A stretch of DNA of 32,000 bases from Aeropyrum pernix K1 (GTDB taxonomy: Archaea; Thermoproteota; Thermoprotei_A; Sulfolobales; Acidilobaceae). The stretch lies in assembly GCF_000011125.1 (NCBI RefSeq), contig NC_000854.2, positions 1,620,001 to 1,652,000 on the forward strand, read 5' to 3'. The notes below the pieces were generated by a model. The model was not told the DNA's origin, did not search any database, and saw nothing but the letters and a program-made list of their open reading frames with translations. Shown here in pieces: positions 2,067 to 20,462 of this stretch (the first letter of the stretch is position 1; every line of letters starts with the position of its first letter). The translations under genes were made by a program, and so were the position numbers.

Positions 2067-2071
2067 CTCCT

Positions 2072-2830
2072 CTAGCCACCTCTCTCACTTATGGCTGCGC
2101 GTATGCTACAGGCTAAGTGGCGAGCCTCCCCTAGCCTGCCGGACGAGACTAGGCGTGCAACTTCTGATCCCACAACGACGGCGTCTGCACCCGCCTCTAG
2201 GACCCTTAGAGCGTCTTCAGGGCTTTTGATGCTGAAGCCGGCTAGCATGTACACCTGCCCAACTATCTTCCTAGCAGTCTTCACGTTGCGCAGAAAGGCT
2301 AGTGGCAGCTTCACCCCTGTAGCTGGCTGAAGGCCCAGGTATATGAGGAGAGGGTCCAGTCTCCTATACCTGTCTAGCCAGCGGTGTGGGAATTTGGGTG
2401 AGGCGAAGAGACTCGGTTCCATGCCGAGCCGCCTAGACTCCTCAACGTACCATTCCACATGGCCAGGCAGCTCGAAGGGGAGGTCCGGAGGGAGAACGCT
2501 TAATGCCCCTTTTCTGGAAGCTTCCCTCAGTACTTCGCTGAAGCTCCACGGCTGTTCGGTGGCGTAGGCCATCACTATATATGGGACTCCGGCCTCTTGA
2601 GAAGCCTCCTCGGCTAGGCTGAGGGTTTTTGGCCCTGAGTAGCCGGACTCGACTGCTTTGAGGTGTGTGAGCCTTATGGTAGGCCCGTCGTAGAGCGGCT
2701 TGGGCGTGGGTATTCCTAGCTCCAGATAGTCTACACAACCTTTCAGGGTCGAGGCGATCTCGAGGAACGTGTCGGGGCTAGGCCAGGCTATTGTGAGGTA
2801 CACTGAAAAGCCGGGCCTAGCTATAGCCAT
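2072..2830 (-). CDS. trpA: Tryptophan synthase alpha chain
   Basis: 252 aa. [17 protein letters not shown] matches the TrpA ELGxPFSDPxADGPxIQ motif. C-terminal GFSI...VVVGS segment. GGTGA Shine-Dalgarno box 10 nt upstream of the ATG. Confidence 0.9.
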
Positions 2831-2981
2831 TGGCTCTTCATCACCGGTCCAGCCTCCTCCAGGGGCTCGTTGAATTGGGAACTCGTCACTTTTAAGCTAT
2901 AGCCTATTGGAGATCGGTTGAAAGAGCTTAAATACAGGTCGAGGCTGCTAGTTGTAGAATTGTGGTGAGAGAAATGAGCCA
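2831..2981. promoter_or_regulatory. Bidirectional trp promoter/leader region
   Basis: 151-bp divergent intergenic region. TATA-like AGCTTAAAAG (minus sense, about 2889-2901) and AGCTTAAATA (plus sense, 2925-2934). Shine-Dalgarno boxes GGAGGAGG/GGTGA on the trpA side and GGTGA at 2964-2968 on the trpD side. Repeated elements are described in the findings. Confidence 0.5.
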
Positions 2982-4019
2982 ATGGTAAATAGTTTTGAAA
3001 AGTCTCGCTTCCTCCTTGTTAAAAAGCTCCTTGAAGGCGAGCCTCTGACCCCTGGGGAGGCCGCTCAACTTGCCCAAGCCATGCTCGACCCCTCCTTCGA
3101 CAACTCCCTCAAAGCAGCCGCCTTAGCGGCATTGAGGGTTAGAGGCGAGCAGCCTGGCGAGGTTGTAGGGTTTGCAAGGGCTCTTAGGGATAGAGCTGTT
3201 AGAGTTGAGTACGGTGGCGAGGTACTCTTGGATACCGCTGGCACCGGAGGCGACGGACTGAGCACACTCAACGCCAGCACTGCTGCTGCGCTGGTAGCGG
3301 CGAGCCTAGGGGTGCCGACAGCTAAGCACGGGAACAGGAGTTTCTCAAGCAAGAGCGGAAGCGCCGATGTAATGGAGATGCTGGGCTACAATATAAATCA
3401 TAGGGCTGATAGGGCTGTCAGAATGCTTTCTACACTGGGTTTCACCTTCCTCTATGCCCCGAACTATCACCCTGCTATGAAGGCTGTGGTGCCTGTAAGG
3501 AGAAAGCTCGCTACGCGAACGATATTTAACCTAGTGGGCCCGTTAGCAAACCCTGCCTTCAACAACGTTCAGGTGATAGGTGTTGCTAGGAGGAGCCTAA
3601 TGCCAGTTATTGCAAGTGCAGCATCGCTCCTAGGCTATGATGCAGTCCTTGTCGTTCATGGAGACCCCGGGATGGATGAGGTAAGTGTTACGGGAGAGAC
3701 CAAAATCCTGGAGGTTAGGAGGGGTAGGATAGAAGAGTATAGTATTACGCCCGAAGACCTGGGCCTGCCTATAACAGGTTTGAAGGAGCTTAGAGTCGCA
3801 AACGCTGTTGAGAGTGCAGAGAGGGTTAGGAGAGCCCTCTCCGGTAGGGGCAGGAGGAGTGATGAGGCTTTTATAGCTGCTAACGCTGCGGCAGCTCTCT
3901 ATGTCGCAGGGTTTGAGAAAGACTTGAAGGGTGCTGCAGAGGCTGCAGTACAGGCTATAAGAGAGGGCAGGCCTGCGGCACTGCTGGAGAAGGCTGTCAA
4001 GGCCTCCCTGGGGATGTGA
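2982..4019 (+). CDS. trpD: Anthranilate phosphoribosyltransferase
   Basis: 345 aa. DTAGTGGDG (GTGGD motif), KHGNRSFSSKSGSADV, NLVGPLANP. Confidence 0.95.
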   Translation: MVNSFEKSRFLLVKKLLEGEPLTPGEAAQLAQAMLDPSFDNSLKAAALAALRVRGEQPGEVVGFARALRDRAVRVEYGGEVLLDTAGTGGDGLSTLNASTAAALVAASLGVPTAKHGNRSFSSKSGSADVMEMLGYNINHRADRAVRMLSTLGFTFLYAPNYHPAMKAVVPVRRKLATRTIFNLVGPLANPAFNNVQVIGVARRSLMPVIASAASLLGYDAVLVVHGDPGMDEVSVTGETKILEVRRGRIEEYSITPEDLGLPITGLKELRVANAVESAERVRRALSGRGRRSDEAFIAANAAAALYVAGFEKDLKGAAEAAVQAIREGRPAALLEKAVKASLGM

Positions 4020-4022
4020 GAT

Positions 4023-5339
4023 TTGCCTTCACCCCCAGAGCCTCCCCTCCACTGGAGGGACTGTAGGCTAGAGCCTATCCTAGGATTTCCTAGGCCTAGG
4101 GAGCTAGCCAAGTCACTTGAAGTCCAGGGGGAGGAGTGGATAGCACTCCTTGAGAGTGGGGGAGGCCTACAGCATAGGAGCAGGTACTCTTTCCTAGCGT
4201 GGGGCAGGAGAAAGTCGAGTGAAACAGACGCTATCAGGGCGTATGAGGAACTCGAGCGCTTAGCGGACGATAAGTGCAGGGCGCTGCCTTGCCGCAGCCC
4301 CACGTTCTTTCTGGTATCCTATGAGGCTGTTGTCGGTGAGGAGCCGTGGCTATCGCGGCTGGTTGGTAGGCATGAGTGGCCAGGTATGACAGCCTTCTCC
4401 CCTGAATATGTTGTAGTCTACGATCACGCAGGGGGAAGGGTGTCGGTTTGCCCAGGTGACACCCCCCTTCCGGCGCCGGCGAGTAGGAAAGAGAGTTTCT
4501 CGGCGGAAGGCCCTACCTATGAGACCTCCAGGAAAGGGTTCGAAGCTATGGTCGCTGACGCGTTGGAGAGGATCAGGGCTGGAGAGGCTTTCCAGGTAGT
4601 GTTATCCAGGGTTGAGAGGTATAGGGTCTGGGGGAGCCTGTTTAGCGCGTATGAGAGGCTCGCCGATGCCAACCCTAGTCCCTACCTATACTACGCTAGG
4701 CTGGGCGGCAGGGTTATCATAGGGAGTAGCCCGGAGCTCCTGGTCAAGCTGGAGGCGGGCAGAGTTGAGACTCACCCGATAGCTGGTACCAGGCCTCGCG
4801 GCTCAACGCCCATTGAGGACATCGAGTTAGAAGTAGAGTTGTTGAACGACGAGAAGGAGAGGGCAGAGCATGTGATGCTTGTTGACCTGGCTAGGAACGA
4901 TATAACCCGTGTATCGATCCCTGGAACCGTACAGGTAACAAGCTTCATGGATATCGAGAGATACGAGACTGTAATGCATATAGTAAGCAGGGTTGAAGGA
5001 GTGACAAGGCCCAGCACCACATTCGTCGAAGCCCTTAAAGCCCTCCACCCTGCAGGCACGGTTAGCGGAGCGCCAAAGCCTAGGGCCATGGAAATTATAG
5101 CCGAACTAGAGGAAGAGGCCAGGGGCCCCTACGCAGGAGCCATAGGAGTAGCGGGTTCTAGCGCGGGCGAGGCGGCCATAGTGCTGAGGAGCGCCTGGCT
5201 CCTAGATGACGGGGAGACCTTGGAAGCTAGAGCTGGCGCCGGGATAGTCTATGATAGCAAGCCCGAGAGAGAGTACATGGAGACTGTCCAGAAACTCGGA
5301 AGCCTAAAGAGGGCTCTGGGGGTGGATATGTGTGGCTGA
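4023..5339 (+). CDS. trpE: Anthranilate synthase component I
   Basis: 438 aa. TTG start 3 nt after the trpD stop. SSPELLV, IAGTRPRG, EKERAEHVMLVDLARND, HPAGTVSGAPKPRAMEII, RGPYAGAIG. Confidence 0.95.
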   Translation: MPSPPEPPLHWRDCRLEPILGFPRPRELAKSLEVQGEEWIALLESGGGLQHRSRYSFLAWGRRKSSETDAIRAYEELERLADDKCRALPCRSPTFFLVSYEAVVGEEPWLSRLVGRHEWPGMTAFSPEYVVVYDHAGGRVSVCPGDTPLPAPASRKESFSAEGPTYETSRKGFEAMVADALERIRAGEAFQVVLSRVERYRVWGSLFSAYERLADANPSPYLYYARLGGRVIIGSSPELLVKLEAGRVETHPIAGTRPRGSTPIEDIELEVELLNDEKERAEHVMLVDLARNDITRVSIPGTVQVTSFMDIERYETVMHIVSRVEGVTRPSTTFVEALKALHPAGTVSGAPKPRAMEIIAELEEEARGPYAGAIGVAGSSAGEAAIVLRSAWLLDDGETLEARAGAGIVYDSKPEREYMETVQKLGSLKRALGVDMCG

Positions 5340-5922
5340 CACGAAGGTGCTGGTCATAGACAACTACGATAGCTTCGTTTACAACATTGTAGATGTGCTG
5401 GCGAGGCTCGGAGCCGAGAGTATAGTGCTTAGAAATGATGAGGTGTCACCTAAAATCGCCAGGAGGCTGAAACCGGATAGAATTGTGATAAGCCCCGGAC
5501 CCGGGAACCCGTTAAACCCTCGTGATTCCGGCAGAGCGCCTGATATAGTGAGGGAGATGGCGAGGAACACTCCCGTCCTGGGCATCTGCCTCGGCCACCA
5601 AATCATCGGGCTCCTATATGGCGCGAAGGTAGAGAGGGCTCCCAAACCAATGCATGGGAAGACTAGTCCTGTGGAACACTACGGTCACAAGCTATACAGA
5701 GGAGTCCCTAGGGTGTTCCAGGCTATGCGCTACCACAGCCTAGCAGTATACGACCCTCCCGAGGAACTACAAGTCGATAGCGTCAGTTTGGACGACAAGG
5801 TAATCATGGGTATAAGCCACGCCGAGTTACCTGTCTACGGAGTCCAATTCCACCCCGAAAGCATAGGCACCCCCCACGGAGAGGTCATAGTGAGAAACTT
5901 CCTAGACGATCCCTGGCCGTGA
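5332..5922 (+). CDS. trpG: Anthranilate synthase component II (glutamine amidotransferase)
   Basis: 196 aa. GTG start overlaps the trpE end by 8 nt. VIDNYDSFVYNIV, ISPGPGNP, GICLGHQ (catalytic Cys), VQFHPES. Confidence 0.95.
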   Translation: MADTKVLVIDNYDSFVYNIVDVLARLGAESIVLRNDEVSPKIARRLKPDRIVISPGPGNPLNPRDSGRAPDIVREMARNTPVLGICLGHQIIGLLYGAKVERAPKPMHGKTSPVEHYGHKLYRGVPRVFQAMRYHSLAVYDPPEELQVDSVSLDDKVIMGISHAELPVYGVQFHPESIGTPHGEVIVRNFLDDPWP

Positions 5923-6055
5923 GCCCCATAAACGGCTCCACCGCCTGCCAACGTTGAAAAAACCTTGGGATAATGATCGCTTTAGCCCCATAGGGTTATG
6001 GAGGATTTGAAACTGAGCTAAGCTCCCATATTCAAGTGGCTTGTTTCCGGGTGTG

Positions 6056-6070
6056 CCAAAATAAAAAGGT
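6056..6070 (-). terminator. T-rich tract downstream of aioA (archaeal oligo-T terminator candidate)
   Basis: The minus strand reads ACCTTTTTATTTTGG, 22-36 nt after the aioA stop at 6092. Confidence 0.3.
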
Positions 6071-6091
6071 TGGGAAACTATTTATGTTCAT

Positions 6092-9000
6092 CTAGCGAAC
6101 GGCAAATCTTATGTCCTTGAACGTAACTTTCTTTATAATCGTCTCGTCAGCCCTGCCTATCTTCCTCAGATTTGCTAGGGTGAGCTTGTAGTCGGGGTTC
6201 TGTGCTGCCGGGTCAACGCTTGGCGTCGTTACAGCGTTTGCACCTACCGCTTTCGGATGGGCCATTATGAGGAATATCGTGCCCGGCGCTACCACCCTCG
6301 TTACCCATACCATGGCTGTCGTGGAACCATAGTCGTTATAGATTACAACTATGTCGCCGTTCTCAAGACCTTCCTTCGCAGCGTCCTCCGGGTTGACCTG
6401 GACGATGTTCATCGGGTGTCTAGCCATAATTTCTACGACGTTGGGGTCTGCATAGCCTGTCTGCCATATAGCGTTGTACCTACCGTTGACAACCCAGTAC
6501 TTATAGCCCTTCCTTATCAGCTCGTCCACATACGGCGGGTACTTATCCCATACTGCTGGCCACGGTTTTAGGTGGCCTGGGACGTAGCTTCTAACAGTCT
6601 CGTTGGAAGGTACGACTTCGATCCTCCTGACTATGGTGCCGTCTGGCTTCACAACAACCACTTCCTCCCGGTAGGTGTCGTTTAGGGCGGGCTCCATGAT
6701 GTTTACCACTCCTCTGACCTCGATTGTGCCGTCTGGCTTCACGTCTAGCTTAGTTATCGGCAGTACGGTGCCGATGGTCCTGAGCTTCCTCAGTATGTTC
6801 AGGTCGAGCTTCTTGAACTCCGGCGTCCAGTACTGGACCTCCCAGTGGACTCCCAGCCTTGCATAGGCTTCGTCGGCGTTGGCTATGTAGGTTTTGAAGA
6901 TCTCGTTCTCAACCTCAACCGTCGGATCCCTAGCGTTGGCTTCCATGGCGTCCCATATAGGCTTAAAGGCCTTTCTGAACCTCTCTGCGACTGGGTCGCC
7001 ACCTCTACCCTCTTCTTCGTATAGCTCGACTATCCTCTTAGCTACGTTCGCGAGTATCCACCAGTCGGGCTTAGCCTCTCCCGGCGGGTCGAGCCAGGCG
7101 TCTGCTATCCTGAACCTCCTCTCGTGAACCCCCATTCTGACGTCGGGCCACTCTCCATTGTTGAACGCTGCAGGGAGTACTACGTGGGCGTCTTCAACCA
7201 TGAAGGTCGGGTAGATGTCCTCGACTATGACGAAGAGGCCTCCAGTCTCTTCAAGGGCCTGGAGCACCTTCTCGGCATACTCCCTGGAGGACGGCGGGGT
7301 CGTTATCACCGGCTCCAGAGCATTGGGGTCGTAGTTGGGCTCCGACTCTTTCCCTCCCACGTTGGCGTAGGCTTCGGCGAACACATACCTTGTTACCCTC
7401 CATGCCCTATCTCCCACGACTGCCTTGAGCCTCTGGGAGTTAGGCGCGAGCCTGTAGTTGTCCATGTCAATGACCCAGAGAACCTTACCCTCACCGTTAG
7501 CCAGCCTGAAATCAGTTGTTGGCATGTAGAAGTCGGCTCTCGGGTATTTCGTGTTATAGTACTCGTCGTAGAGGCTCTTGTCCGGATAAGCTATGTGATG
7601 CCTCTCATCGGTCCATGGCGGTGGTGGGGGCGCTGGGCTGGCGAAGCCCTCCTGGTGCCCTCCCTGCCTCTGGCAGCCACATCCCGGGAGACCTCTCGTT
7701 GCTCCAGCTATCATGCATAGGTCGAATAGGCTGTAGATGGATCTGTAGTTCTGGTTCCATATTATCCCCTTCTCGTACATTAACCATACTCTCTTGGGGT
7801 ATCCTCCCTCCTTCCTCTCGGCTATCCATTTGGCGGCTAGTTCTATCTTGTCCCTCGGCACTCCTGTTATGCTCTCGGCCTCGGCGAGGACCTCATCCAA
7901 CGTCTCCTCGCCGACCTGTAGCGCCTCCGAAACATACTTCTGGAAGCCCTCCTCATCCCATTTGAACCCCCAGCCGGCAGCTGATCTATAGTGGTTGACA
8001 AACTCCTCCACAACATCACCGTATCTCTCGTAAATGACTCTGGCTATCGCGTTCGCGAGCACTATGTCAGTGCCCGGCTTCACCTGAAGGTGCAACACCC
8101 TGTCCTTACCCGCGGCAGCTTCAGCTGCTTCAACAGTCTCCGTCCTCCTCGGATCAACAATTATTATCCTACTATCTATCACGGGCTCTCCGGGGTTAAA
8201 CCACCTCTGCTTCTCAGCCTTGGTGGCGCCCCTTAGATTGTCGAGGACGTGTTTCACGAACATGACAGTCGCAGTGGAGTAGGGATTATTACCCCACAGT
8301 ATTATCGTGTCGGCAAGCCTGAGGTCGTGGTAGGAGGTATTCATGGCGCCGGGTCCTGCATCGCCTGCCGCAGGGTTCTCGGGCCCGAAGAAGGGCCGGT
8401 TATGTATTCTGGCGAATGCTGTTCTCACGCCGTAGAAGAAGAACAGGCCGACGACTGTGTTGAAGATCATACCGCCACCGCCGCCGCCACCGTGGTCCAT
8501 ACGGTGGGCGAAGACTGCGTGCCCTTCCTTACCCCACCCTGGCCTCTCTATCCCCCACTTGTCGATAACTCCCTTGACAACCCTTGCAACAAGGTCTATA
8601 GCATACTCCCAGGAAACGGGCTCTAGCCTCCCACCGAACCTGACCAGGGGCTTAGTGAGCCTCCTCTCCCCAGCGATGTTCCAGGGGCTCCATATCCTCT
8701 CTGCCTGGGTACCGCCTCTCACCGAGTGGTTGCCCCAGTTTATGGGGCACTCGGGGCTCGGAACCTGCGCGACGTAAACCTCCCTCCAGCCTCCTGTCCC
8801 TCTACCCCTCTCCCAGGTTCTCCTTATCGTCTTGACTACCATAGCCTCGGATATCCAGGGCTCACCCTCCTCGGCGCTGAGGCCTGTGTGCTCCTTTGTG
8901 AAGTCGGGCTGCTTTACCAGGTTCCTCCCGTAAGCCTCGTCGACTATCTTATACTCTATACCGTGTCCACCTGGCTCCGGGGACCCCTCAGCACCGGCGG

Positions 9001-9115
9001 GCCATACGTACACATCGTAGCCGCAGCCCACGTTGCAGAACTGGCACATAGTTGTGTAGTGCTGGGCCCCCTTTGGGGGTAGAGGTACTCTCCCCATCCT
9101 CGGGTAGACCATCAC
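6092..9115 (-). CDS. aioA: Arsenite oxidase-type molybdopterin oxidoreductase, large subunit
   Basis: 1007 aa with a collinear match to remembered Alcaligenes faecalis AioA. Matching segments: [28 protein letters not shown] (C-x2-C-x3-C, 3Fe-4S type), [91 protein letters not shown]. No signal peptide of its own. GTGATG start overlaps the aioB stop. Confidence 0.9.
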   Translation of the reverse strand: [1007 protein letters not shown]

Positions 9116-9744
9116 GCCTTCACCCCCTGCAGGTTGTCGTAACGGCCGTACACTAGGGCCGTGAAACCGACTGCAAAAATGTCGCCCGAGGCCTCGTCAT
9201 ACTCAAGGATAACCTGTGGTAGATATTCGGTCGCGTGGCCTACCACAGGCTGTCCACCCCTAGACGGGTCGAACTGGGAGAAGTGTAGGGGGCAAATCAA
9301 TGTCTTTGTGTTACCGTCGAATATGAGGAAACCGCCCATGTGGGTGCATAGCATGCTGAAAGCTACAATATCCTTGTCAGGCCCGACACCGTTGACAGCC
9401 TCCTCCCCAAGCTTTATAACTACAATCCTATGGCCAATGTACTCCTTGAAAACAGGCTGCCCCTCCCTGAGCTCGCTAACGTTTGCAATCTTAACCTTGG
9501 GATACTTTTTCTCCACAAGCTGAACCTGAGTTTGGGTCTCAGTGACAGTAGCAGTCTCAGTCGCGGTGGCCGTGACAGTCTGCGTCGGCCCAGGCTTCAC
9601 AACCTCCTTTTCCCTCGGGAATGCAGTGCTCCCTACAACAGCTCCCACTATGAATGCAGCGGCGCCAGCACCAGCAGCGGCAAGAAATTCTCTCCTGGTT
9701 ATACGTAGACCCTTATCTTCCCCACCATTATCACTCCTGGACAC
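9112..9744 (-). CDS. aioB: Arsenite oxidase-type Rieske [2Fe-2S] small subunit with Tat signal/anchor
   Basis: 210 aa. Twin-arginine motif ITRREFLAAAGAGAAAF. Thr/Val/Ala/Glu-rich linker. Rieske boxes CTHMGG and CPLHFSQF. GTG start preceded by AAGGAGGGTGA. Confidence 0.85.
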   Translation of the reverse strand: MSRSDNGGEDKGLRITRREFLAAAGAGAAAFIVGAVVGSTAFPREKEVVKPGPTQTVTATATETATVTETQTQVQLVEKKYPKVKIANVSELREGQPVFKEYIGHRIVVIKLGEEAVNGVGPDKDIVAFSMLCTHMGGFLIFDGNTKTLICPLHFSQFDPSRGGQPVVGHATEYLPQVILEYDEASGDIFAVGFTALVYGRYDNLQGVKA

Positions 9745-9847
9745 TTATAAGTCACCCTCCTTAAGGGGGGAAGTCATTAAACTCAAATAATCGGGGAATT
9801 AGTAGATATTTCTTGTTAAAATGTTAGTATTGATAAAACAGAATTTC

Positions 9848-9988
9848 ATATGAGATAATATGAGAAAAATACAAATATAAGGCAACAATTATTAGGGGAA
9901 AACAGCTGAGGTGAGCATATTAACTATATTAACAGCATATTAACTATATTAACTAGGCTGTCTAGGAGCCATTTATGGAACCATTTAT
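9848..9988. repeat. Cluster of short phased AT-rich direct repeats in the lrp-TRASH/aioB intergenic region
   Basis: ATATGAGA occurs twice (9848-9855, 9858-9865). A perfect tandem 20-mer AGCATATTAACTATATTAAC occurs twice (9914-9933, 9934-9953), which equals four copies of YATATTAAC. CCATTTAT occurs twice (9969-9976, 9981-9988). Confidence 0.85.
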
Positions 9989-10098
9989 CTTTTGGGGACC
10001 CCGTCTACTGTAATTGTTACCGTTCTGACCTTCAATACACTGGCTTCAGGAAATAGACACAGAAGGTGTAAACATCCTACACAGTGTTGAAACCATGT

Positions 10099-10731
10099 TC
10101 AACCCTTAAGCCTACCTTTGTCTAAATTTAGTTTGAAATAGGCTTCAGCGCATCTCTCGTTGTGAAACACGAGGATCCTACCGTCGTCCAGCACAACAGT
10201 ATATGGCCTACCGACTATAATGCTCTGGCAGAAGGAGCATTTAGCTTGAACTTTTGTAAGTGGTTTCTCAGGTACCCAGGGCTCGTCTCCAACTTCCCTG
10301 TCGATGAATATTGTGTTTTCAACCTGGAAGCCTGCCTTCTCAATTCTTCTTACAATCTCGTCAACACCTCCAGGATCTAGAGTTCTTGCTAGCACTGCCC
10401 CGAAACCTCGCTTAGACGAGTAGAAGATCCTTTCTATCTCGCTGGATTTGACGGCGGAGATGTCTGTATTGCCGTCCTCGCCCTCTGGAGCCTGGAATAG
10501 TATTAGGTAGGTTAGGGCTCCGAGGACCTCGGGGTCTATTGAAGCCTTACAGCCTTTAATGACGCCCAGCGCCTTTAACCTCCTTATTCTTTTCCTCACG
10601 TTTGGAACGCTGACCCCTACGGCTTGGGATATTTTGTTAATGGCTGTGGTACAGTCATTGGCAAGTATTCTCAAAATCTCAATGTCGATTGCATCGATCC
10701 CCCGTGATCTTAGGCTCAATATGTCACCCAC
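10099..10731 (-). CDS. Lrp/AsnC-family transcriptional regulator fused to a C-terminal TRASH-like C2HC domain
   Basis: 210 aa. N-terminal HTH_AsnC pattern IDIEILRILANDCTTAINKISQAVGVSVPNVRKRIRRLKALGVIKG. Central RAM-like domain. C-terminus CSFC-x21-H-x3-C-AEAYF fits the TRASH/L24e-type pattern. An alternative TTG start at 10719 has GGTGA 4 nt upstream. Confidence 0.8.
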   Translation of the reverse strand: MGDILSLRSRGIDAIDIEILRILANDCTTAINKISQAVGVSVPNVRKRIRRLKALGVIKGCKASIDPEVLGALTYLILFQAPEGEDGNTDISAVKSSEIERIFYSSKRGFGAVLARTLDPGGVDEIVRRIEKAGFQVENTIFIDREVGDEPWVPEKPLTKVQAKCSFCQSIIVGRPYTVVLDDGRILVFHNERCAEAYFKLNLDKGRLKG

Positions 10732-10772
10732 TAATGGCTAGTGTTCAACTATCCTGTTAAAGCGGCAACTCG

Positions 10773-11426
10773 TCACACAAAACTTCCGAGTCTCAAGCTC
10801 GTAGAGCCCTGTATTCTCTTGGCTAGGACGTATGAGTTGTGGTGGAGAAGGAGGAGTGACCCTGCCGCTATGGGGATCCAAAACTTGGTTAGTACGAGGA
10901 CGAAGCTTATGGCTCCGAGGCCAAGGCCAGCTGCGGATAGTGCCACTGGTAAGATGCCTATGCAGCAGGAGGAGGCGGATATTAATGGTATAGCTGTGGA
11001 TACAATTGTTCTAAAAAGTGTTAGTTTCCCTCTCTCTAACCCTGCCCTATAAGCTTCCCCTAGTTCGACCCTGCAGTCGCAGTCCTGGGAGTTTAGATAC
11101 TGTATTAGGGTGATGTTGAGGGATAAGAACATACCGACTATGATTCCAAGCAGCAGGAGAGGCGTGTCAAGGACTATGATGACCCTTCCAAGGGAGACTG
11201 CTAAGGCTGGCAGGCTGGGGGCTATAAGGCTTGGAAACACTGAGATAGAGGCCTCAACAGAGCTGCCGAGTCTGAACATTCCAGACGCTGGAAGAAACAG
11301 TGTCAGGAACCCGGCGAATATCATTAGGAATCGTATTCTCCATTTGGGGAGTGATAATATGAAGCGAGATTTTCTATAGGGGTCTATTGTATAGTTTATC
11401 AACGATGTTCCAGGACTGAATCTCAT
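10773..11426 (-). CDS. Polytopic membrane protein with CDC loop motif and intramembrane SCC-x4-P motif (function unknown)
   Basis: 217 aa with about 5 hydrophobic segments. Loop NSQDCDCRVE. TM segment LISASSCCIGILPVALSAAGLGLG. ATG preceded by GGAGGGTGAT, which overlaps the upstream gene's stop (translational coupling). Confidence 0.6.
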   Translation of the reverse strand: MRFSPGTSLINYTIDPYRKSRFILSLPKWRIRFLMIFAGFLTLFLPASGMFRLGSSVEASISVFPSLIAPSLPALAVSLGRVIIVLDTPLLLLGIIVGMFLSLNITLIQYLNSQDCDCRVELGEAYRAGLERGKLTLFRTIVSTAIPLISASSCCIGILPVALSAAGLGLGAISFVLVLTKFWIPIAAGSLLLLHHNSYVLAKRIQGSTSLRLGSFV

Positions 11427-11432
11427 GCTTAA

Positions 11433-12098
11433 TCACCCTCCTTGGACACTTTTTATGACAGACTCTAGCTCGCCAAGGCTAGGCGTTGTACCAGCGTAGA
11501 GAACGTTGCTGGACTTATCCATGATTACAATATAGTCAATACTTCTGACATTGAACTTTTCCACTAAGCTGCCGTCATCCATAACCATGATCCACGAAGG
11601 GTCACCATAGTTGGCTATAAATTTACGGAACATCTCCGGCGTGTCTGGTGGTGGGTAGCCTGGCTTGTTTAGACCTAGAGCCTTCAGCGCTTCTGCTGTC
11701 CAAAAGTCAATAGCAATGACGCTTATTTCCCTGTATTTTTCGGTGAGCCTGTCTAATAAATCAGCCATATATACGCACGAGGGGCACCAGGCTGCCATAA
11801 ACCAGAGGATAACAACATCGCCTCCAACATTATTAAGGCTGATTACTTCCCCGTCGATAGTTGTCAGTGAAAACGAAGCCTCTCGCTCCAGCACCTCCTC
11901 CGAATGCCCGGCGGCTCGAGGGATAGCTATGGTGTATGCTGTATATCCAGCTACTAGCAGGAGAACTATAGCGGCGGTAACAATAACAGCTTGCCTGGCG
12001 CCCATACGTGATACGCCTTCACGCCTGTAATTTCGCGTGTCTAAACAGGCTACTCCAAAACTCTGCAATAGGTAGCTGCTGCTCGGAGCTGGAAGCAT
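11433..12098 (-). CDS. Membrane-anchored thioredoxin-fold thiol:disulfide oxidoreductase (TlpA/ResA-like)
   Basis: WFMAAWCPSCVYM carries a WCxxC active site. A single N-terminal TM (AVIVTAAIVLLLVAGY) precedes the Trx domain. An alternative ATG at 12005 (MGARQ...) would give a shorter cytoplasmic tail. Confidence 0.8.
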   Translation of the reverse strand: MLPAPSSSYLLQSFGVACLDTRNYRREGVSRMGARQAVIVTAAIVLLLVAGYTAYTIAIPRAAGHSEEVLEREASFSLTTIDGEVISLNNVGGDVVILWFMAAWCPSCVYMADLLDRLTEKYREISVIAIDFWTAEALKALGLNKPGYPPPDTPEMFRKFIANYGDPSWIMVMDDGSLVEKFNVRSIDYIVIMDKSSNVLYAGTTPSLGELESVIKSVQGG

Positions 12099-12421
12099 GC
12101 GTTAGCTCGAAGACCGTGTTCCCTCCACGGCTAACCTTGATAGACCAGATAAAAACTTGACTCATCTTGACACGCCTAATTATATAGTTGACGGTAGGCT
12201 GGATATTCCTACTGTGAAAAAGAGGATACTGTGGATGAGTGATGCGCGTTAAATGTAAGGCCTGTATTTAACTCTTACCGGAAATAGGCTTCTTTGGATC
12301 TCAGCATAGTAAGAAAATGAAACAAGGCTTAGAGGCTTTAGTGTAGAGGCATAGGGCTAGAATTGACAATGCTTCTAACGTTGCATTAGAATCATTATCA
12401 TTGTCTGTCGGGAGAGGCTTG

Positions 12422-12820
12422 CTACACTGGTAACGACTGTACGCTAAGCACTCCGCTCAGGCTCCTCAACTTTTTAACGATAGTTCTCCAGTCGTCTTTA
12501 CCTCCTACTACGGCTATTGTTATACAGTAGGGGCCTTGAAGTATCTGGTGGTAGAGTGCTATGAGCTCCTCACTATACGAGTGTATGAGCCCCACTATGT
12601 TCTTGTCAACATATGGACTCGACTTGTGGTCGCTGAGTACCACGATGAGCCGGTAGCTGCCTGAGGACTTGTTATCCTCATCTTCCAGGAACGTTTGGAG
12701 AGCCGTCTTTATGAGGTCACTTCTGCTTTTGAAGCCGTACTCCTCTACGGCCCTGTCAACCTTCCTCACTAAATGGTCTGGCAGGCTTACGCTGACTACT
12801 GTTACCACTTCTCTCACCAA
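12422..12820 (-). CDS. NikR-like ribbon-helix-helix regulator with C-terminal ACT-like metal-binding domain
   Basis: 132 aa. RHH signature VSVSLPDHLVRKVDRAVEEYGFKSRSDLIKTALQTFL. The C-terminal half aligns to remembered E. coli NikR, with His/His/Cys at positions equivalent to H76, H87 and C95 but Ile at H89. TTG/GTG start with a likely leaderless transcript. Confidence 0.7.
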   Translation of the reverse strand: MVREVVTVVSVSLPDHLVRKVDRAVEEYGFKSRSDLIKTALQTFLEDEDNKSSGSYRLIVVLSDHKSSPYVDKNIVGLIHSYSEELIALYHQILQGPYCITIAVVGGKDDWRTIVKKLRSLSGVLSVQSLPV

Positions 12821-12864
12821 TTAATAAATAGTCATTAGTAAGTTAATAAATCTTCATTAAGTAC
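12821..12864. repeat. Imperfect 22-bp tandem repeat filling most of the nikR-like/ATPase divergent promoter
   Basis: TTAATAAATAGTCATTAGTAAG (12821-12842) followed by TTAATAAATCTTCATTAAGTAC (12843-12864). The minus sense contains TTTATTAA (TATA-like) in each unit. Confidence 0.7.
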
Positions 12865-12892
12865 TTGCAAAATTTAATATCCTATAAACCCC

Positions 12893-14758
12893 ATGTTTAC
12901 TAAATGTTGGGTGTATACGGCAATGGTGGAGAAGGGCCGTAAGCATGAAGAGGTAGAGGAGGCTCATGGGGATTACGGCCATGTTGAGAAGGAGATTTTC
13001 ATGGTAAACGGATTGCTAAGCGTGCTTGGCCTCATGCTATTGTTCCTAGGCATCCAGGAGGTCTCCATAGCTTCTCTATGGGTAATAACCCTTATACTAT
13101 CAATAGCGGCTGTCCGAGAGCTGGTTCTGGAGAGGAGGCTCACAGTCGAGCTCCTAATGGCTATAGTGGGCTTCATACTTGCATACCACGGGATAGTGTT
13201 TGAAGGACTCATAATAATGCTGCTCTACAGCTTCGCCGAGACTCTTGAGGCGCAGGTAGAGAAGCTGGCTCTCCGCAGGCTCGAAGAGGCTAAGAGGCTG
13301 ATACCGAAGAGGGTCAGGGTCGTCCGGGACGGGTCTATAGAAGAGGTGGATGCCTCGCAGGTAAAGCCTGGAGATGTTGTTCTAGTCAGGAAAGGCGAGG
13401 CGGTTCCAGTTGATGGAGTTCTCCTAGATACCGGAGTATTCGACCTCAGGCTCATTACGGGGGAGAGCGAGCCGGTTACTGTGGAAGGAGGGAGGGCTAT
13501 AGAGAGTGGTGCGATAAACGTTGGCCAGCCTGTTAAGGTTAAGGCTGTGAAGAGCCCTCTTGAGTCGACCATACAGAGGATAGTCTCCAGCGCTCTCGAG
13601 CTTCTTAGGGAGAAGGGGGCCACTCAGAGGCTTATAGATAGGCTTGCTCCCTACATGATAGTAATCGTCATAGGAGCGTTTATAGCGGCTTACATAACCC
13701 TTGGGCCGGAGAAAAGCGTAGTCCTACTACTAGCAGGATGTCCAAGCGCGTTTATAATAGCTAGCTCGGCAGCGACAAGCTACTCTATAGCAACCCTGGC
13801 GACAAGAGGCATAGTAGCAAGAGGAGGTAGAAGTCTAGAGGCTGCGGGCAAGATAAAGGCGGTAGTCCTGGATAAAACGGGCACAATTACAATGGGCACG
13901 CTGAAGCCTTCAAGAGTCGTGGTACTAAGAGGGGCGGCGAGCCAGGACGGACTTCTCAACCTGGTAGCTGCAGCAGCTTCAACCAGCCTACACCCCTTGA
14001 GCATAGCAATAGCGAGGCGTTGGAGGCCTATGGGTAATGTGGAGAAGGTGGAGGAAGTTCCTGGACGGGGACTGAGGGCTGTCGTCTCAGGTAGGACGCT
14101 CCTACTAGGGTCGGAGAGGTTCTTAGAGGAGGAGGTGGGATACAGGCCGGAGAACCCCTGTGTAGATGAGGTTCCAGTGTTCGCCCACGTGGACGGGACA
14201 ACCTTGGCTATCTGTATGAGTGAGGAAGTGGACGAGAAGACCAAAGCAGCCATAAATGAGATGAAGAGGATGGGGCTAAATCTTGTGCTAGCGAGCGGTG
14301 ATAGGAGGAATAAGGTGGAGAAGATTGCCAGAGAGCTCGGTATCGATGAATACCATGCCGAGCTCAAGCCCGAAGACAAGCTAGAGATAGTCAGTAAGGT
14401 AAGGGAGAAATATGATCCCGTCTCCATGATAGGTGATGGAGTCAACGACCTCGAAGCTCTAGCGGCGAGTGATCTGGGGGTTGCCGTGGGCAACATTGAT
14501 GCTGTAAGAAACCTTGCTGACGCAGTCCTTGTTAACGGAGTTGCAGACGCCCCGAGGCTCTACAGGATGGGCAGGTCATACCTGGCAGGCCTGAAGGCAG
14601 GCCTCGTGGCAGCTACCATAGTAAAGCTCGCGGTGATCATACTGGGTATTGGCGGTTCAATACCACTGTGGCTCGTGGCACTACTGGGCGACGACGGAAG
14701 CACTATCATAGGCAGTGTAGCCGCTGTAGCCGTGATACTCCTCACGTATAGGGGCTGA
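12893..14758 (+). CDS. P1B-type heavy-metal-transporting ATPase without an HMA domain and with an atypical CPS transmembrane motif
   Basis: 621 aa. DKTGTITMG phosphorylation site, TGESEPV, SLHPLS (HP motif), GDGVNDLEALAASDLGVAVG. TM motif LLLAGCPSAF where CPC/CPH/SPC is usual. C-terminal TM has LLGDDGSTII. Short His/Glu-rich N-terminus (KHEEVEEAHGDYGHVEKE). The start could instead be at a downstream Met. Confidence 0.9.
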   Translation: MFTKCWVYTAMVEKGRKHEEVEEAHGDYGHVEKEIFMVNGLLSVLGLMLLFLGIQEVSIASLWVITLILSIAAVRELVLERRLTVELLMAIVGFILAYHGIVFEGLIIMLLYSFAETLEAQVEKLALRRLEEAKRLIPKRVRVVRDGSIEEVDASQVKPGDVVLVRKGEAVPVDGVLLDTGVFDLRLITGESEPVTVEGGRAIESGAINVGQPVKVKAVKSPLESTIQRIVSSALELLREKGATQRLIDRLAPYMIVIVIGAFIAAYITLGPEKSVVLLLAGCPSAFIIASSAATSYSIATLATRGIVARGGRSLEAAGKIKAVVLDKTGTITMGTLKPSRVVVLRGAASQDGLLNLVAAAASTSLHPLSIAIARRWRPMGNVEKVEEVPGRGLRAVVSGRTLLLGSERFLEEEVGYRPENPCVDEVPVFAHVDGTTLAICMSEEVDEKTKAAINEMKRMGLNLVLASGDRRNKVEKIARELGIDEYHAELKPEDKLEIVSKVREKYDPVSMIGDGVNDLEALAASDLGVAVGNIDAVRNLADAVLVNGVADAPRLYRMGRSYLAGLKAGLVAATIVKLAVIILGIGGSIPLWLVALLGDDGSTIIGSVAAVAVILLTYRG

Positions 14759-14988
14759 GAGTAGAGAATAGTTGTATACCATGCGTTGAAGAGGCTTTAG
14801 CAGGGGGAATTTACCCTTATTGATTAACTAACTCCATTCATAATAGTCGCTATTACCACATATCAAGCAATCTTAGACCGTTCTCGAATGCCTTGATATA
14901 ATTGCATGGCTGTTTATGGCGTCTAGGGCTGGAGATTAATGATAGGTTTAGGCGATCTTTTATGTCTACCCACAAGCTAAACTATGTT

Positions 14989-16161
14989 CTATCCCGGTGC
15001 CTCAACACCCTGTACGCATTCCGGCCATCCAACGGTGGTAGCTCGCTCTAGAATTTCGATTGAGAGGGCTGGATGAATCTCCGCCCACATTCCATGATCC
15101 GTGTCGAAGACGTAGACCCCGGTTACCCTCAACAGGTCGCCGGGACACACTCCGCCGCCTAGCAGACCGAGGACCTCGAAGTAGTCTCCGGGGACTACCT
15201 CTATGTGTAGCCCCCCTTTCCGGAGAAGTATGTTGCCTAGTCCAAGCAACCATCTTTCTTTAGGATCAATGTCAAATACGTAGTCACCATCCCCTGCGAA
15301 GCTCGGAATGTTTGATACCCTACCTTCGACCGTGAGGCACGTGTCCACTATCCTAAGCCTCTCCGGTGTGTGGGTTTCGGCGAACACGTTTTCGGCTGGA
15401 GGGCATTCTCCAGGCTCCAGTTGCGCCCATCTACCGTCGGTATAGTTCGTTGGGTTGAAGGGATTGAGAGCCGCTTTTGAGTTGAAAAGCAGTGCACTAC
15501 CGCCTAATAATACTCCGGCAGCTAGAAGGAATACGCCCAGAAGAGGGATGGCTCTCGAGTAGGCCTTGCCGATCAGGATCTTATCATGGAGGTAGAGTAG
15601 GGCCACAACCGCGACCGAGGCGACTAACGCTGGCACTGAGAGTAGCGAGTAGGTCGCCAGCCAGTAGAGGATTAGGGCTGAGCCTGCTAGAAAAGCCCCT
15701 GCCGAGTCGCCCCTGCTAGCGGACTTGAAGGCTGTGTAAGCGAAGGGTGCTGTGAAAACCCCATAGATAGCTAGGGAGGCGTGTATACCGTCATCTCCAT
15801 AATACAGGACTGCCACGGTTAGCGCCAGCAGCTGCTCAACACCGGCCAGGACAACGGCGGCAGTGGCAGGCCCGCCTCCCCGAGATAAAACCCCTGCTGC
15901 ATACACGCCGATGGGACGTAGTAAGAGGCTTACGAGGGCTACTACGGGGAAGACTGCCTTTGAGAGAACCAGGAGGGGGAGGGCTAGTGTATGGGCGGCC
16001 AAGATATATAGTGCCGCGTCCCTCGGCCTGTACGCCATAACCGCATAATACTCTACCGCGAATGTAAGGCCGTACCCGCTTGCCAGGGATGGTGCGTTTG
16101 TCATAGTTGAAATGGATAGTGAAGAGAGGGCTGTGAAGAGGGCGTCACGCTTACTCGGCAT
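14989..16161 (-). CDS. Hypothetical polytopic membrane protein with a C-terminal soluble Cys-containing domain
   Basis: Long ORF with at least 7 hydrophobic segments followed by a soluble domain of about 150 aa. I prefer ATG 16161 (MPSKRD...) because GGAGGTG lies about 13 nt upstream. The track's TTG start is at 16185. Confidence 0.6.
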   Translation of the reverse strand: MPSKRDALFTALSSLSISTMTNAPSLASGYGLTFAVEYYAVMAYRPRDAALYILAAHTLALPLLVLSKAVFPVVALVSLLLRPIGVYAAGVLSRGGGPATAAVVLAGVEQLLALTVAVLYYGDDGIHASLAIYGVFTAPFAYTAFKSASRGDSAGAFLAGSALILYWLATYSLLSVPALVASVAVVALLYLHDKILIGKAYSRAIPLLGVFLLAAGVLLGGSALLFNSKAALNPFNPTNYTDGRWAQLEPGECPPAENVFAETHTPERLRIVDTCLTVEGRVSNIPSFAGDGDYVFDIDPKERWLLGLGNILLRKGGLHIEVVPGDYFEVLGLLGGGVCPGDLLRVTGVYVFDTDHGMWAEIHPALSIEILERATTVGWPECVQGVEAPG

Positions 16162-16274
16162 TATATGGCAGACACCTCCAGGCAACTATTGTTTACCGGG
16201 TTTGAAAGAAGCGATTACCTTGGAGAGCGGTATATACCAGAAAGCTGTTTCCCGGATCTGCAAAATCTTCTCAA

Positions 16275-17468
16275 TCACCCAGCGAAACTCTCTAGGAAGT
16301 TTAGTGTCAGTGCCACTGACTTCTTAAAAGATTCCCGGTTTTCATGGCCCAACCCGAGTCTGATGGTGCCCGGTAGTTTGAAGCACTCTCCAGGGTTCAC
16401 TAGTATACTGTGGGTTTGGTAGAGCTTGTATGCGAAGCTCAGCGTGTCACCCACGGTAGTTTCGACTAGGGCGTAGGCACCGGCGTCCGGACGCCACAGC
16501 TTGGCCGTTCTAAACCTGGTCGTGAGGTCCTCGAGGATTTCCAGGTTGGAGAGGACTATCCTCCTTCCCCTCTCGGCGAGCTTTTTCCAGACTCCTTTCT
16601 CTAGGATCTGCTCGGCTATGTGCTCGCTGGGCTTGGGTGGAGAGATTGTTGTGTAGTCTTTTACCATCCACATTCTATCCCTAAGCCTCCTCGAGGTTGC
16701 TGCTGCCCATCCTATCCTCAGTCCTGGGAGGCCGTAGACTTTCGATAGCCCTGAGACCGATATCGCGTGGGCCCCCTGCTCTAGGGCTGGTTCTAGGACT
16801 GTCGGTGCTGGCTCTGTAGAGTGCTCTAGGCCCCTGTACAGCTCGTCGAACACTAGTATGGAGCCTGTTCTCGCGGCTTCCGCCGCTATCTCGCCCAGAG
16901 CCTTGGGGCCGGCGACAGAGCCGGTGGGATTGTTTGGGTTGGTTATGAAGACAGCCCTGGGCTTCTCTCTCTTTATCAATTCCGCGTAGAGGCCTGGGTC
17001 TAGCTTCCATCGGTGCTCCCGCTTACGCCACGCCTCCAGTATTCTTGCCCCTCTCATCCTGAGGAGACCGTGTATCTGCATGTAATTGGGCATGTCGAAT
17101 AAAACCCTGTCCCCGGGGGCTACTAGGGATATAACCGAGAGTAAGTTCGCCTCGGCGGAGCCAGTGGTTATTATCACTTGTTCGCTATCCACAAGCCCCC
17201 TGTAGTATACGCTCGCCACACTCTCTCTAAGCCCCGGCTCGCCGAGGGTCCACCCGTACCCGAGCACAGCACTCCGGACGTCAAGGTCTACTCCCAGCTC
17301 GGTGAGCATCTCCGCTGCAGGAGGCTCTACACCGCTCTCGCTAAGGAGATATTTAGCACTGTTCTCGAGGGTACTCTGCCACCTCTCCAGGCAGAAGACG
17401 GGCAGGCCGGGGGCAGCCTCCCCCTCTGTGAGGAACTCCCTGTCTAAAGGATTTGCAGGGTTATCCAC
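16275..17468 (-). CDS. Class I/II PLP-dependent aminotransferase
   Basis: 397 aa. NPNNPTG, DELY, SGLSKVYGLPGLRIGW (PLP lysine), and a C-terminal RLGLG-type segment. Confidence 0.85.
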   Translation of the reverse strand: MDNPANPLDREFLTEGEAAPGLPVFCLERWQSTLENSAKYLLSESGVEPPAAEMLTELGVDLDVRSAVLGYGWTLGEPGLRESVASVYYRGLVDSEQVIITTGSAEANLLSVISLVAPGDRVLFDMPNYMQIHGLLRMRGARILEAWRKREHRWKLDPGLYAELIKREKPRAVFITNPNNPTGSVAGPKALGEIAAEAARTGSILVFDELYRGLEHSTEPAPTVLEPALEQGAHAISVSGLSKVYGLPGLRIGWAAATSRRLRDRMWMVKDYTTISPPKPSEHIAEQILEKGVWKKLAERGRRIVLSNLEILEDLTTRFRTAKLWRPDAGAYALVETTVGDTLSFAYKLYQTHSILVNPGECFKLPGTIRLGLGHENRESFKKSVALTLNFLESFAG

Positions 17469-17527
17469 GAGACGGACACCACATCAGTTTAGATAAGGGC
17501 TTCGCCTTAATAGACGGTCACAGTAAA

Positions 17528-18424
17528 ATGGTATTCCACCCGATAGATATGTACGGGTGTTCTGGCTTAGCCGGCGGTACACAGGGAGGAGGCGCAGCGG
17601 GTGTACCGAATGATGTTAAATTACGCTGGTACAGGATAAGGCCCCCTCTAGTCAAGAGGAGCGGCATAACCGGGTGGGCTATAAACTTTGCGGTAGGGTG
17701 TACCCACGCATGTCCCTTCTGTTATGTCGACGCCATAAACAGGAGGTATCCCCGGAGGGGGCTTGAGGACCTCATAACTTCTACAGGCTGGGGAGGCTAT
17801 CTAGCGGTTCCCACTAACATCTTGGAGGCGATAAAGGAGACGCCGTGGTGGAGGTGGCGGGGTAGGGAGGTTTTCATGAGCAGCGCACACGACCCCTACC
17901 TGCCAGCATTGGCTCGGTGGGCCCGGGAGATTCTTAGGAGGGCGCTCCCAGCCGGGCTCAGAATAATACTGCACACTAGGAGTATCCTCTACAAGCGCGA
18001 TCTAAGGATGTTCGAGCAGTATAGAGATAGGATTAGGATCCACGCCTCCGTGGCTACAATGAGCAGGCTTCACAGGATAATCGAGCCAAGAGCCCCTCCT
18101 CCCCGTGTAAGGGTTAGAGTTCTGGCCGAGGCTTCCTCGAGAGGCTTGTCTACAGGAGCCTCCATATCACCTATACTCCCTCCAAACAAGTACAACCCCG
18201 ACGTGTACAATGACCTCCTTGCAGTAGCAGAGGCTCTAGCAGAGGCGGGGGTCGAGGTTGTATACGGGGAGAGCCTCCACAAGAGGGGTGATAACGTGAT
18301 GAGGCTCTCAAGCCTTCTGGGCACGGATTTGAACCTGAGAGGGTGGGACAGGCATGCCGAGAAGCTCTTCTACAGGGCTATCGGAGAGTACGGATTAAGG
18401 GGAGTATGGATTCCCGAGTGGTAG
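17528..18424 (+). CDS. Radical SAM protein, SplB/DNA-photolyase-like (COG1533-like)
   Basis: NFAVGCTHACPFCYV carries the C-x3-C-x2-C radical SAM motif. The track start at 17453 overlaps the divergent aminotransferase start, so the first ATG at 17528 is preferred. Confidence 0.65.
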   Translation: MVFHPIDMYGCSGLAGGTQGGGAAGVPNDVKLRWYRIRPPLVKRSGITGWAINFAVGCTHACPFCYVDAINRRYPRRGLEDLITSTGWGGYLAVPTNILEAIKETPWWRWRGREVFMSSAHDPYLPALARWAREILRRALPAGLRIILHTRSILYKRDLRMFEQYRDRIRIHASVATMSRLHRIIEPRAPPPRVRVRVLAEASSRGLSTGASISPILPPNKYNPDVYNDLLAVAEALAEAGVEVVYGESLHKRGDNVMRLSSLLGTDLNLRGWDRHAEKLFYRAIGEYGLRGVWIPEW

Positions 18425-18432
18425 CCGGCTTC

Positions 18433-19284: not shown

Positions 19285-19285
19285 T

Positions 19286-20287: not shown

Positions 20288-20462
20288 CTTACTCTAAACC
20301 ATAACGAGTATTTCTAAAGTATATATATCTAAACCCAAGATAATATCTTTGGCTGTATGCTGGCTAACACGAGGACCTCGCCCGGGGCGGACCATATATT
20401 AGTAAGCCTGCTTACATGTAACTATAAGCTGGTTCAACGCAATCCCCTGATGGTGGCAAGTC

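Follow-up and report, generated by a model that had tools for sequence, protein, structure and literature searches.

Introduction

CopR and CopT, in which an Lrp-type helix-turn-helix (HTH) is joined to a TRASH domain, are copper-responsive regulators of Saccharolobus solfataricus, Thermococcus onnurineus and Pyrococcus furiosus (PMC7830388, citing Ettema 2003, 2006), and CopR senses copper via its TRASH domain (PMC7830388). A TRASH protein is also used in Sulfolobus mercury resistance, and a survey of mer operons found those of archaea to have no transporters and only ArsR-type regulators (PMC3466566). The regulators described for bacterial arsenite oxidase are AioXSR and the ArsR/SmtB protein AioF (PMC7533571). 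Here, a stretch of 32,000 nucleotides from Aeropyrum pernix K1 (contig NC_000854.2, positions 1,620,001 to 1,652,000; hereafter the window) was analyzed around a gene that encodes an Lrp/AsnC-type regulator with a TRASH-like C-terminal domain and lies beside the arsenite oxidase genes aioBA. An earlier sequence-only reading had proposed this protein as the archaeal regulator of arsenite oxidase or, failing that, as a Cu/Cd sensor for neighbouring thiol and ATPase genes. Comparison with its relatives argues against the first proposal and points, at what we judge an even chance, to a sensor of a thiophilic metal that would control a module made of a thioredoxin and a membrane protein.

Results

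Domain architecture of the regulator

The regulator has the two parts that define the Lrp/AsnC family (FFRP, feast/famine regulatory proteins), an AsnC-type HTH and a RAM effector/oligomerisation domain. The HTH was recognised by two Pfam HTH_AsnC-type models above cut-off over aa 12-53 (PF13404, E 6.9e-12; PF13412, E 1.8e-11). The Pfam RAM model PF01037 gave no match on the regulator, and the RAM-like domain was assigned from three other sources: the alignment of the regulator family profile with full-length Lrp structures, which runs to position 146 (2w29, E 1.7e-13); an AlphaFold2 (AF2) model of the regulator, in which a beta-alpha-beta-beta-alpha-beta unit is visible; and a Foldseek search with this model, which returned Lrp/AsnC proteins exclusively (2cyy, 1.9e-8). 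Translation from an alternative TTG at 10719, with GGTGA ahead of it, yields a protein of 206 aa, which is the form annotated in A. pernix (P0001).

The succession of an Lrp HTH, a RAM-like domain and a TRASH/L24e-like module that had been read from the sequence was thereby borne out. Sequence profiles matched the C-terminal domain of the window protein below cut-off (L24e, E 0.0024; zf-FCS, E 0.04), and the Pfam model Arc_trans_TRASH did not recognise it, while giving weak matches in 10 of 13 C-terminal domains of the family (best E 3.3e-4). A domain-only AF2 model, built on 13 homologues, reached a predicted local distance difference test score of 81, with a core above 90, and the best 50 Foldseek matches to it in the PDB were all eL24, L24e or Rlp24 (root-mean-square deviation 1.3-1.7 Å over 40 residues, probability 1.0), the CxxC and F-x4-C elements being in register. 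Because of this domain model and its structural matches the L24e/TRASH fold assignment is sound and, as modelled, the domain has the treble-clef/L24e-like fold that TRASH requires. It differs from the eL24/L24e zinc ribbons in being fused to a transcription-factor core instead of belonging to the ribosome, and in that its sequence matches fall below the family cut-offs.

A site of three invariant cysteines with a free fourth position

As reportedly set out by Ettema in 2003, TRASH is the four-Cys motif C-x2-C-x19-22-C-x3-C. The last 65 residues of the regulator contain C165-S-F-C168-x21-H190-N-E-R-C194, exactly the spacing given in the sequence-only reading; this departs from the four-Cys motif, since the x21 spacing fits but His190 stands where the third Cys would be. 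The substitution was confirmed against a canonical Lrp-TRASH protein, P0028 (PF08394), which aligns with the window protein from the HTH through the first CxxC (28% identity, E 1e-21) and reads FYLCCPTC where the window protein reads LVFHNERC. The C-terminal domain thus retains three of the four canonical TRASH Cys.

Five Cys are invariant among ca. 24 complete members of the family down to 32% identity, namely C165, C168 and C194 of the C-terminal domain together with C27 and C61, which occur in every full-length member and are absent from P0028. The invariance of C165, C168 and C194 across ca. 24 homologues indicates that the motif is no chance feature. By contrast, position 190 varies: members of the Aeropyrum group and of the distant group have H there, the closest outside clades have N or S, and one further clade has T. 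This variation implies that H190 is not a conserved ligand, and a site of three Cys whose fourth position is free is the more apt description; the 'three thiols plus a His' proposed earlier is weakened accordingly. In the linker ahead of the C-terminal domain, P154 is invariant family-wide and W152 is kept in all members but one (R in P0026).

As in CopR and CopT, the domains follow one another in a fixed series (AsnC-type HTH, Lrp-like core, C-terminal TRASH-type Cys domain), and the parallel that had been drawn with these regulators holds (PMC7830388). The window family differs from them in lacking the third canonical Cys, replaced by H here and by H, N, T or S across the family, and in having the additional C27 and C61 and the WxPEKP linker.

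Stand-alone proteins of 77-94 aa with the same three-Cys domain (C-x2-C...[HA]-x3-C) were also observed, with two copies in P0012, P0014 and P0015 and one in P0016. These small proteins may represent chaperone-like relatives.

A small crenarchaeal branch of Lrp-TRASH regulators

An exhaustive HMMER pass with a profile of the RAM and C-terminal domains over 1.84 billion representative proteins yielded 14 proteins at E < 1e-3. In a profile search of 5.8 billion clusters, 15 family clusters scored at least 216 bits, below which the score fell abruptly to 114 bits, that of the canonical P0028. This gap of more than 100 bits to canonical Lrp-TRASH sets the family apart as a separate subfamily, a crenarchaeal branch of small size within the CopR/CopT-like (Lrp-TRASH) metalloregulators.

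Relatives were also retrieved with a degenerate DNA pattern for C-x-[FY]-C-x3-I-x-G-x-P-Y-x-V, which overlooks members with PYVL or PYVI. Four of its 22 genome matches were real, all from Desulfurococcales/Acidilobaceae, as were seven of its 39 metagenome matches. A scan of genome contigs with the alignment of the RAM and C-terminal domains, whose patterns proved too specific, gave no confirmed relatives. A. pernix is the sole named genome among the carriers, the others being Desulfurococcales/Acidilobaceae metagenome-assembled genomes (MAGs) and hot-spring metagenomes.

The regulator is the last gene of a thioredoxin-membrane protein-regulator unit

The features around the regulator gene are collected in Table 1. 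Its position directly upstream of and co-directional with aioBA, which had been noted before, was confirmed, aioB and aioA passing the cut-offs of TIGR02694 and TIGR02693, and the distance to aioBA is 354 nt. On the other side the genes are much more tightly packed, with 6 nt between the thioredoxin and membrane protein genes and 41 nt between the latter and the regulator gene. Base composition follows the same division: GC content is 47.7-48.8% for the three genes (49-52% at third codon positions, GC3), as against 56.2% for aioA (GC3 68%) and a GC3 of 58-68% for aioBA. The regulator is therefore the last gene of a compact, compositionally uniform unit, and the thioredoxin gene is probably the first gene of this operon.

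Table 1. Features of the window in and around the regulator gene, numbered from the first nucleotide of the window
Feature	Position	Strand	Remarks
Lrp/AsnC-RAM-TRASH-like regulator gene	10099..10731	(-)	210 aa from GTG start
AsnC-type winged HTH, aa 12-59	10555..10698	(-)	contains invariant C27; C61 directly after, in 'GC' linker
RAM-like beta-alpha-beta-beta-alpha-beta domain, ca. aa 66-146	10294..10536	(-)	from profile, AF2 and Foldseek
Linker W152-x-P-E-K-P157 ahead of C-terminal domain	10261..10278	(-)	from family conservation
L24e/TRASH-fold domain, C165-x2-C168-x21-H190-x3-C194	10126..10242	(-)	three invariant Cys, position 190 variable
Membrane protein, 217 aa, polytopic, with CDC and SSCC motifs	10773..11426	(-)	41 nt upstream of regulator gene
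Membrane-anchored TlpA/ResA-like thioredoxin (WCPSC motif)	11433..12098	(-)	Pfam AhpC-TSA/Thioredoxin and NCBIfam ResA/TlpA, both subthreshold
AT-rich spacer between regulator gene and aioB	9745..10098	.	354 nt, 34.5% GC
aioB	9112-9744	(-)	TIGR02694, 140 bits vs cut-off 96
aioA	6092-9115	(-)	TIGR02693, 583 bits vs cut-off 359
NikR-like regulator	12422-12820	(-)	divergent from P1B heavy-metal ATPase
P1B heavy-metal ATPase	12893-14758	(+)	Cd-type TIGR01512 above cut-off, Cu-type TIGR01511 below

Relatives of the regulator accompany thioredoxin, membrane protein and MerA genes

Family members were recovered in ca. 10 independent contexts, mostly MAGs and short contigs. A draft A. pernix strain (L035) carries the same block, aioBA included. 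At 78% identity, L002 has the NikR-like, thioredoxin, membrane protein and Lrp genes in the order of the window, its contig stopping just past the regulator gene, and in L005 the membrane protein and thioredoxin genes lie beside the regulator gene. The order in L011 and L025 (48%) is Lrp, YHS, thioredoxin, membrane protein, the YHS protein directly downstream of the regulator being CopM-like and 49 aa long (E 3.6e-20). Orthologues of the thioredoxin are thus found beside family regulators in L002, L005, L011/L025 and L053, and the regulator, thioredoxin and membrane protein families recur as a group in Desulfurococcales and Acidilobaceae.

In the two closest outside clades (47% identity), the unit also includes MerA. 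The arrangement is Lrp, membrane protein, MerA in L017, an Acidilobaceae MAG (1727-4545), and in L053 (2-3222) the Lrp gene is divergent from thioredoxin, membrane protein and MerA. The L017 MerA scores 576 bits against the TIGR02053 cut-off of 454, and shows the CVNFGC active site and a C-terminal PCCLI Cys pair. Members of the T-type clade (L006, L041, L042, L058, L064 and L072; 38-40%) are flanked by CopZ (zf_CopZ plus HMA) and two YHS/TRASH proteins, and in L072 a MerA gene lies 5.8 kb from the regulator. Linkage to merA is accordingly operonic or divergent in L017 and L053 and loose in L072.

In L006 (1145-1441), and in orthologues in L041, L064 and L072, an open reading frame (ORF) of 98 aa lies between the two YHS/TRASH genes. 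It has an N-terminal 'SCC' and a 'TCYAC' motif and matches no family; it may be an HMA-like metal-binding protein.

The membrane protein of the window belongs to no Pfam or NCBIfam family. Among the relatives, the L005 and L017 membrane proteins each match those of L011 and L053 at 1e-15 to 1e-21, and a hidden Markov model built from these four proteins found the L002 orthologue over its full length (9.4e-11), that of L035 (1.5e-4) and the window protein (2.1e-3). Pairwise BLAST of the window protein against the L005 and L017 members was not significant (E 0.2), so that the homology is drawn from profiles and the L002 orthologue only. On this footing, the window protein is, by sequence, a divergent member of the family found in the MerA operons of the relatives. 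A database search with the alignment of the membrane proteins returned three proteins, all without a name.

Association with aioBA is confined to Aeropyrum

The sequence-only reading had named lack of synteny with aioBA in other archaea as evidence against a regulator of arsenite oxidase. When AioA and AioB were compared by tblastn with 20 context loci, the sole matches were in the second Aeropyrum strain, and neither gene was present in ca. 9 non-Aeropyrum contexts within flanks of up to 10 kb, some contigs being much shorter. A metagenome scan with AioA, aimed at synteny from the aio side, gave no matches; the test from that side rests on the absence of the family from named genomes. Among named genomes the family occurs in A. 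pernix and otherwise in a small number of MAGs, so that it is not what the remaining archaea with aio genes rely on. The link between aioBA and the regulator is thus one of adjacency within Aeropyrum only.

Discussion

A candidate sensor of thiophilic metals

The reading we favour, which on the sequence evidence we hold at even strength for and against, is that the regulator is an Lrp-TRASH variant resembling CopR, with a thiophilic metal as its signal (Hg(II) being likelier than Cu(I)) and the thioredoxin-membrane protein module under its control. Sensing of the Hg/Cu type is best supported by the literature and by the conserved thiol and soft-metal neighbours in the nearest clades, namely thioredoxin, Cys-pair membrane protein, YHS/TRASH, CopZ and MerA. 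One half of the earlier fallback proposal is thereby kept, that of a soft-metal sensor for thiol genes; the metal would be Hg or Cu rather than Cd, and the target appears to be the thioredoxin and membrane protein pair rather than the ATPase, which is accompanied by a divergent NikR-like regulator of its own.

The mechanism would follow that expected for CopR/CopT, in which an oligomeric Lrp scaffold is switched allosterically by a soft metal on the C-terminal domain. The regulator would bind DNA as an Lrp-type oligomer at the promoter of its own operon. A thiophilic ion preferring three-coordinate sulfur, most likely Hg(II) and possibly Cu(I) or Ag(I), would bind the Cys3 site of the TRASH-like domain, and C27 and C61 may join in metal binding. 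The bound ion would change the oligomer and so switch transcription of the thioredoxin-membrane protein-regulator operon. The output would be the membrane-anchored TlpA-like thioredoxin and the Cys-pair membrane protein, which might form a MerP/MerT-like pair for capture and import, or a thiol-reducing pair, feeding MerA, which Aeropyrum is reported to encode elsewhere in its genome (PMC8261052). The place of the regulator beside aioBA would be a lineage-specific juxtaposition.

A bolder version, to which we give clearly less credence and which we put forward as tentative, is that the whole family is a new type of archaeal sensor of Hg(II) or soft metals, based on a three-Cys degenerate TRASH and a Cys pair of the HTH region, that would control a mercury capture and uptake pair feeding MerA, and that no mer module with both a regulator and a transporter had been described from Archaea before; in Aeropyrum the sensor might also respond to As(III) and modulate aioBA.

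Several observations weigh against a thiophilic-metal sensor. The window contains no merA, copZ or YHS gene, and its membrane protein is tied to the family by a weak profile match (E 2.1e-3) and through the L002 orthologue, with which it shares 59% identity. In three distant groups (32-37%; L029-L033 at ca. 8001-11226, L026, L028 and L034), either a co-directional MoxR AAA+/VWA pair lies downstream of the regulator or TatC lies alongside; all distant members have His at position 190 and surroundings that are otherwise of the housekeeping kind (TatC, IlvD, Opp, MoxR-VWA), which indicates that the family as a whole is not tied to metal genes. A search for a shared palindromic operator in 11 promoter regions and the region upstream of aioB, which had low power, yielded no motif shared by three or more lineages, and the aioB spacer contained none. 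Metal specificity is not derivable from sequence, the Cys of the regulator could simply hold a structural Zn, and eukaryotic eL24, which has also lost Cys ligands, provides by analogy a precedent for an L24e fold without a metal site.

Comparison with mer systems

The mer system of Sulfolobus, made of an ArsR-type MerR, the TRASH protein MerH and MerA, resembles the present one in devoting a TRASH-type domain to a thiophilic metal, and the relatives L017 and L053 stand in MerA operons. With the bacterial MerR/MerT/MerP system there are two likenesses: the Cys-pair membrane protein and the CxxC extracytoplasmic protein recall the division of labour between MerT and MerP, and MerR also uses a three-Cys Hg site. 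The differences are that the window regulator has an Lrp-type fold, neither ArsR-type nor MerR-type; that the membrane protein, of ca. 215 aa, falls in no MerT, MerC or MerF family above threshold, the best match being to MerT for one member (L005, E 0.012); and that the extracytoplasmic partner has a thioredoxin fold instead of an HMA fold. The regulator is unrelated to AioXSR, AioF, bacterial MerR and the ArsR-type archaeal MerR.

Lrp or AsnC receives no mention in PMC8261052, and the arrangement of Lrp, thioredoxin, membrane protein and MerA appears to be undescribed in the mer literature (PMC3466566, PMC8261052). The L017 and L053 loci can be regarded, from their gene content, as compact putative archaeal mer operons, and loci of this type are concrete candidates for archaeal mercury sensing and uptake. 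What is delimited here is a rare Lrp-TRASH subfamily, marked by a three-Cys site plus two more invariant Cys and linked to a thioredoxin/membrane protein pair; its nearest relatives are linked to MerA as well. The residues at the fourth ligand position (H, N, T or S) constitute a natural series on how TRASH tunes metal selectivity.

Alternative explanations

The alternative that survives best, itself unlikely, is that the regulator is a copper-specific CopR/CopT orthologue, a Cu(I) sensor with a cop-type regulon of chaperones and exporters. TlpA-type thioredoxins serve copper-site assembly in bacteria, which would suit such a regulon. The architecture as in CopR (PMC7830388), the CopZ and YHS/TRASH proteins that flank the T-type clade, and the CopM-like YHS protein directly downstream of the regulator in L025 and L011 point the same way. 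A cop cluster, with copA and copM or copZ adjacent, is however not found in the window, and only the T-type relatives adjoin CopZ/YHS; the partners in the family are instead thioredoxin, membrane protein and MerA, and the nearby ATPase, 2.2 kb away, scores as Cd/Zn type and is paired with the NikR-like gene. To this are added the score of canonical Lrp-TRASH, far below those within the family and marking a separate subfamily, and the placement of the nearest relatives in MerA operons.

Somewhat lower we place a thiol/disulfide redox sensor, in which the five Cys would respond to oxidative or disulfide stress and the regulator would control a reducing pathway outside the cytoplasm, made of a DsbD/CcdA-like membrane conduit for electrons and a TlpA-like thioredoxin. 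Two of these Cys are family-specific additions in or next to the HTH, the conserved partners are a CxxC thioredoxin-fold protein and a Cys-pair membrane protein, and enzymes of the MerA kind belong to the flavoprotein disulfide reductases. Yet the MerA proteins encoded nearby in relatives score above the MerA equivalog cut-off and have the diagnostic Cys pair at their C-terminus, chaperones dedicated to metals (YHS, CopZ/HMA) turn up repeatedly next to the regulators, and the sensing domain is of metal-binding TRASH ancestry.

An As(III)-responsive regulator of the adjacent aioBA, restricted to Aeropyrum and with As(III) on the three TRASH-like Cys in an ArsR-like S3 site, comes third and is improbable. 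Three-thiol sites suit As(III) chemistry, and the three invariant Cys would do so here. In two Aeropyrum strains the regulator gene immediately precedes aioBA on the same strand, and the 354-nt spacer is long enough for regulatory sites. The earlier statement that AioX/AioS/AioR-type genes are missing from the window also proved right for ORFs of at least 100 aa, among which no histidine kinase, response regulator, AioX-like binding protein or ArsR/SmtB fold was found, leaving the window without another aio regulator. The review of these systems describes no archaeal aio regulator (PMC7533571). Against this stand the absence of aioA and aioB from the non-Aeropyrum contexts, a family distribution that cannot be that of a general archaeal aio regulator, the packing of the regulator with the thioredoxin and membrane protein genes, whose GC content it shares and from which that of aioBA differs, the MerA operons of the closest relatives, and the lack of conservation of His190. 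Likeness to AioXSR/AioF is limited to the position beside aioBA and, hypothetically, to thiol-based As(III) sensing as in AioF/ArsR; the periplasmic binding protein, histidine kinase, sigma-54 activator and ArsR fold of those systems have no counterpart in the regulator, and the aio association is not kept outside Aeropyrum. Had the aio proposal held, it would have provided the missing archaeal arsenite oxidase regulator; the comparative data argue against it and spare an experimental detour.

Least probable is an ordinary Lrp regulator, whose C-terminal module would serve only for structure (as a zinc ribbon), for oligomerisation or for protein contacts and whose effector, if any, would be a metabolite on the RAM domain: such a protein would fit the presence of that domain, the housekeeping neighbourhoods of the distant members, the tolerance of the eL24 fold to ligand loss and the variable fourth ligand position, but strict conservation of the three Cys next to a drifting fourth position accords with three-coordinate sensing, and the clades closest to the window protein repeatedly cluster with thiophilic-metal genes.

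Neighbouring genes and other features of the window

The NikR-like gene and the P1B ATPase gene constitute a neighbouring metal module with its own regulator. The pair is kept in L035, and the NikR-like gene in L002. The ATPase has no HMA domain, and shows a His-rich N-terminus and an unusual 'GCPSAF' transmembrane motif. In the 72-nt spacer between the two genes, a 17-nt direct repeat, TTAATAAATAGTCATTA / TTAATAAATCTTCATTA, is found at 12821-12859.

A low-GC block extends from 9745 to 12900 (45-49%, vs a window mean of 54.5% and 56% for aioA) and encompasses the regulator, membrane protein, thioredoxin and NikR-like genes. Its composition suggests a separately acquired cassette. Within it, an inverted repeat at 12364-12400 with 15-nt arms, TGACAATGCTTCTAA / TTAGAATCATTATCA, and a 7-nt spacer lies directly downstream of the NikR-like stop codon, with ca. 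270 nt separating it from the thioredoxin gene further downstream; part of this repeat is missing from L035.

In the spacer between the regulator gene and aioB, a Shine-Dalgarno-like GGAGGGTGA precedes the GTG start of aioB. A perfect 20-nt tandem duplication at 9914-9953 generates four copies of GTTAATAT on the minus strand with a phase of ca. 10 bp. These phased copies were considered as a binding array and rejected, since they stem from a duplication that the other A. pernix strain lacks, L035 having a single copy of the 20-nt unit. The duplication is therefore a strain polymorphism in a putative regulatory region and not a conserved site.

The window is 94-95% identical to the L035 draft from 5982 to 20483. 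Synteny breaks at ca. 5982, just downstream of aioA, where the window continues into a trp operon (142-5922) and L035 into TAXI/TRAP transporter genes, which places the aio/metal block at a strain-variable junction.

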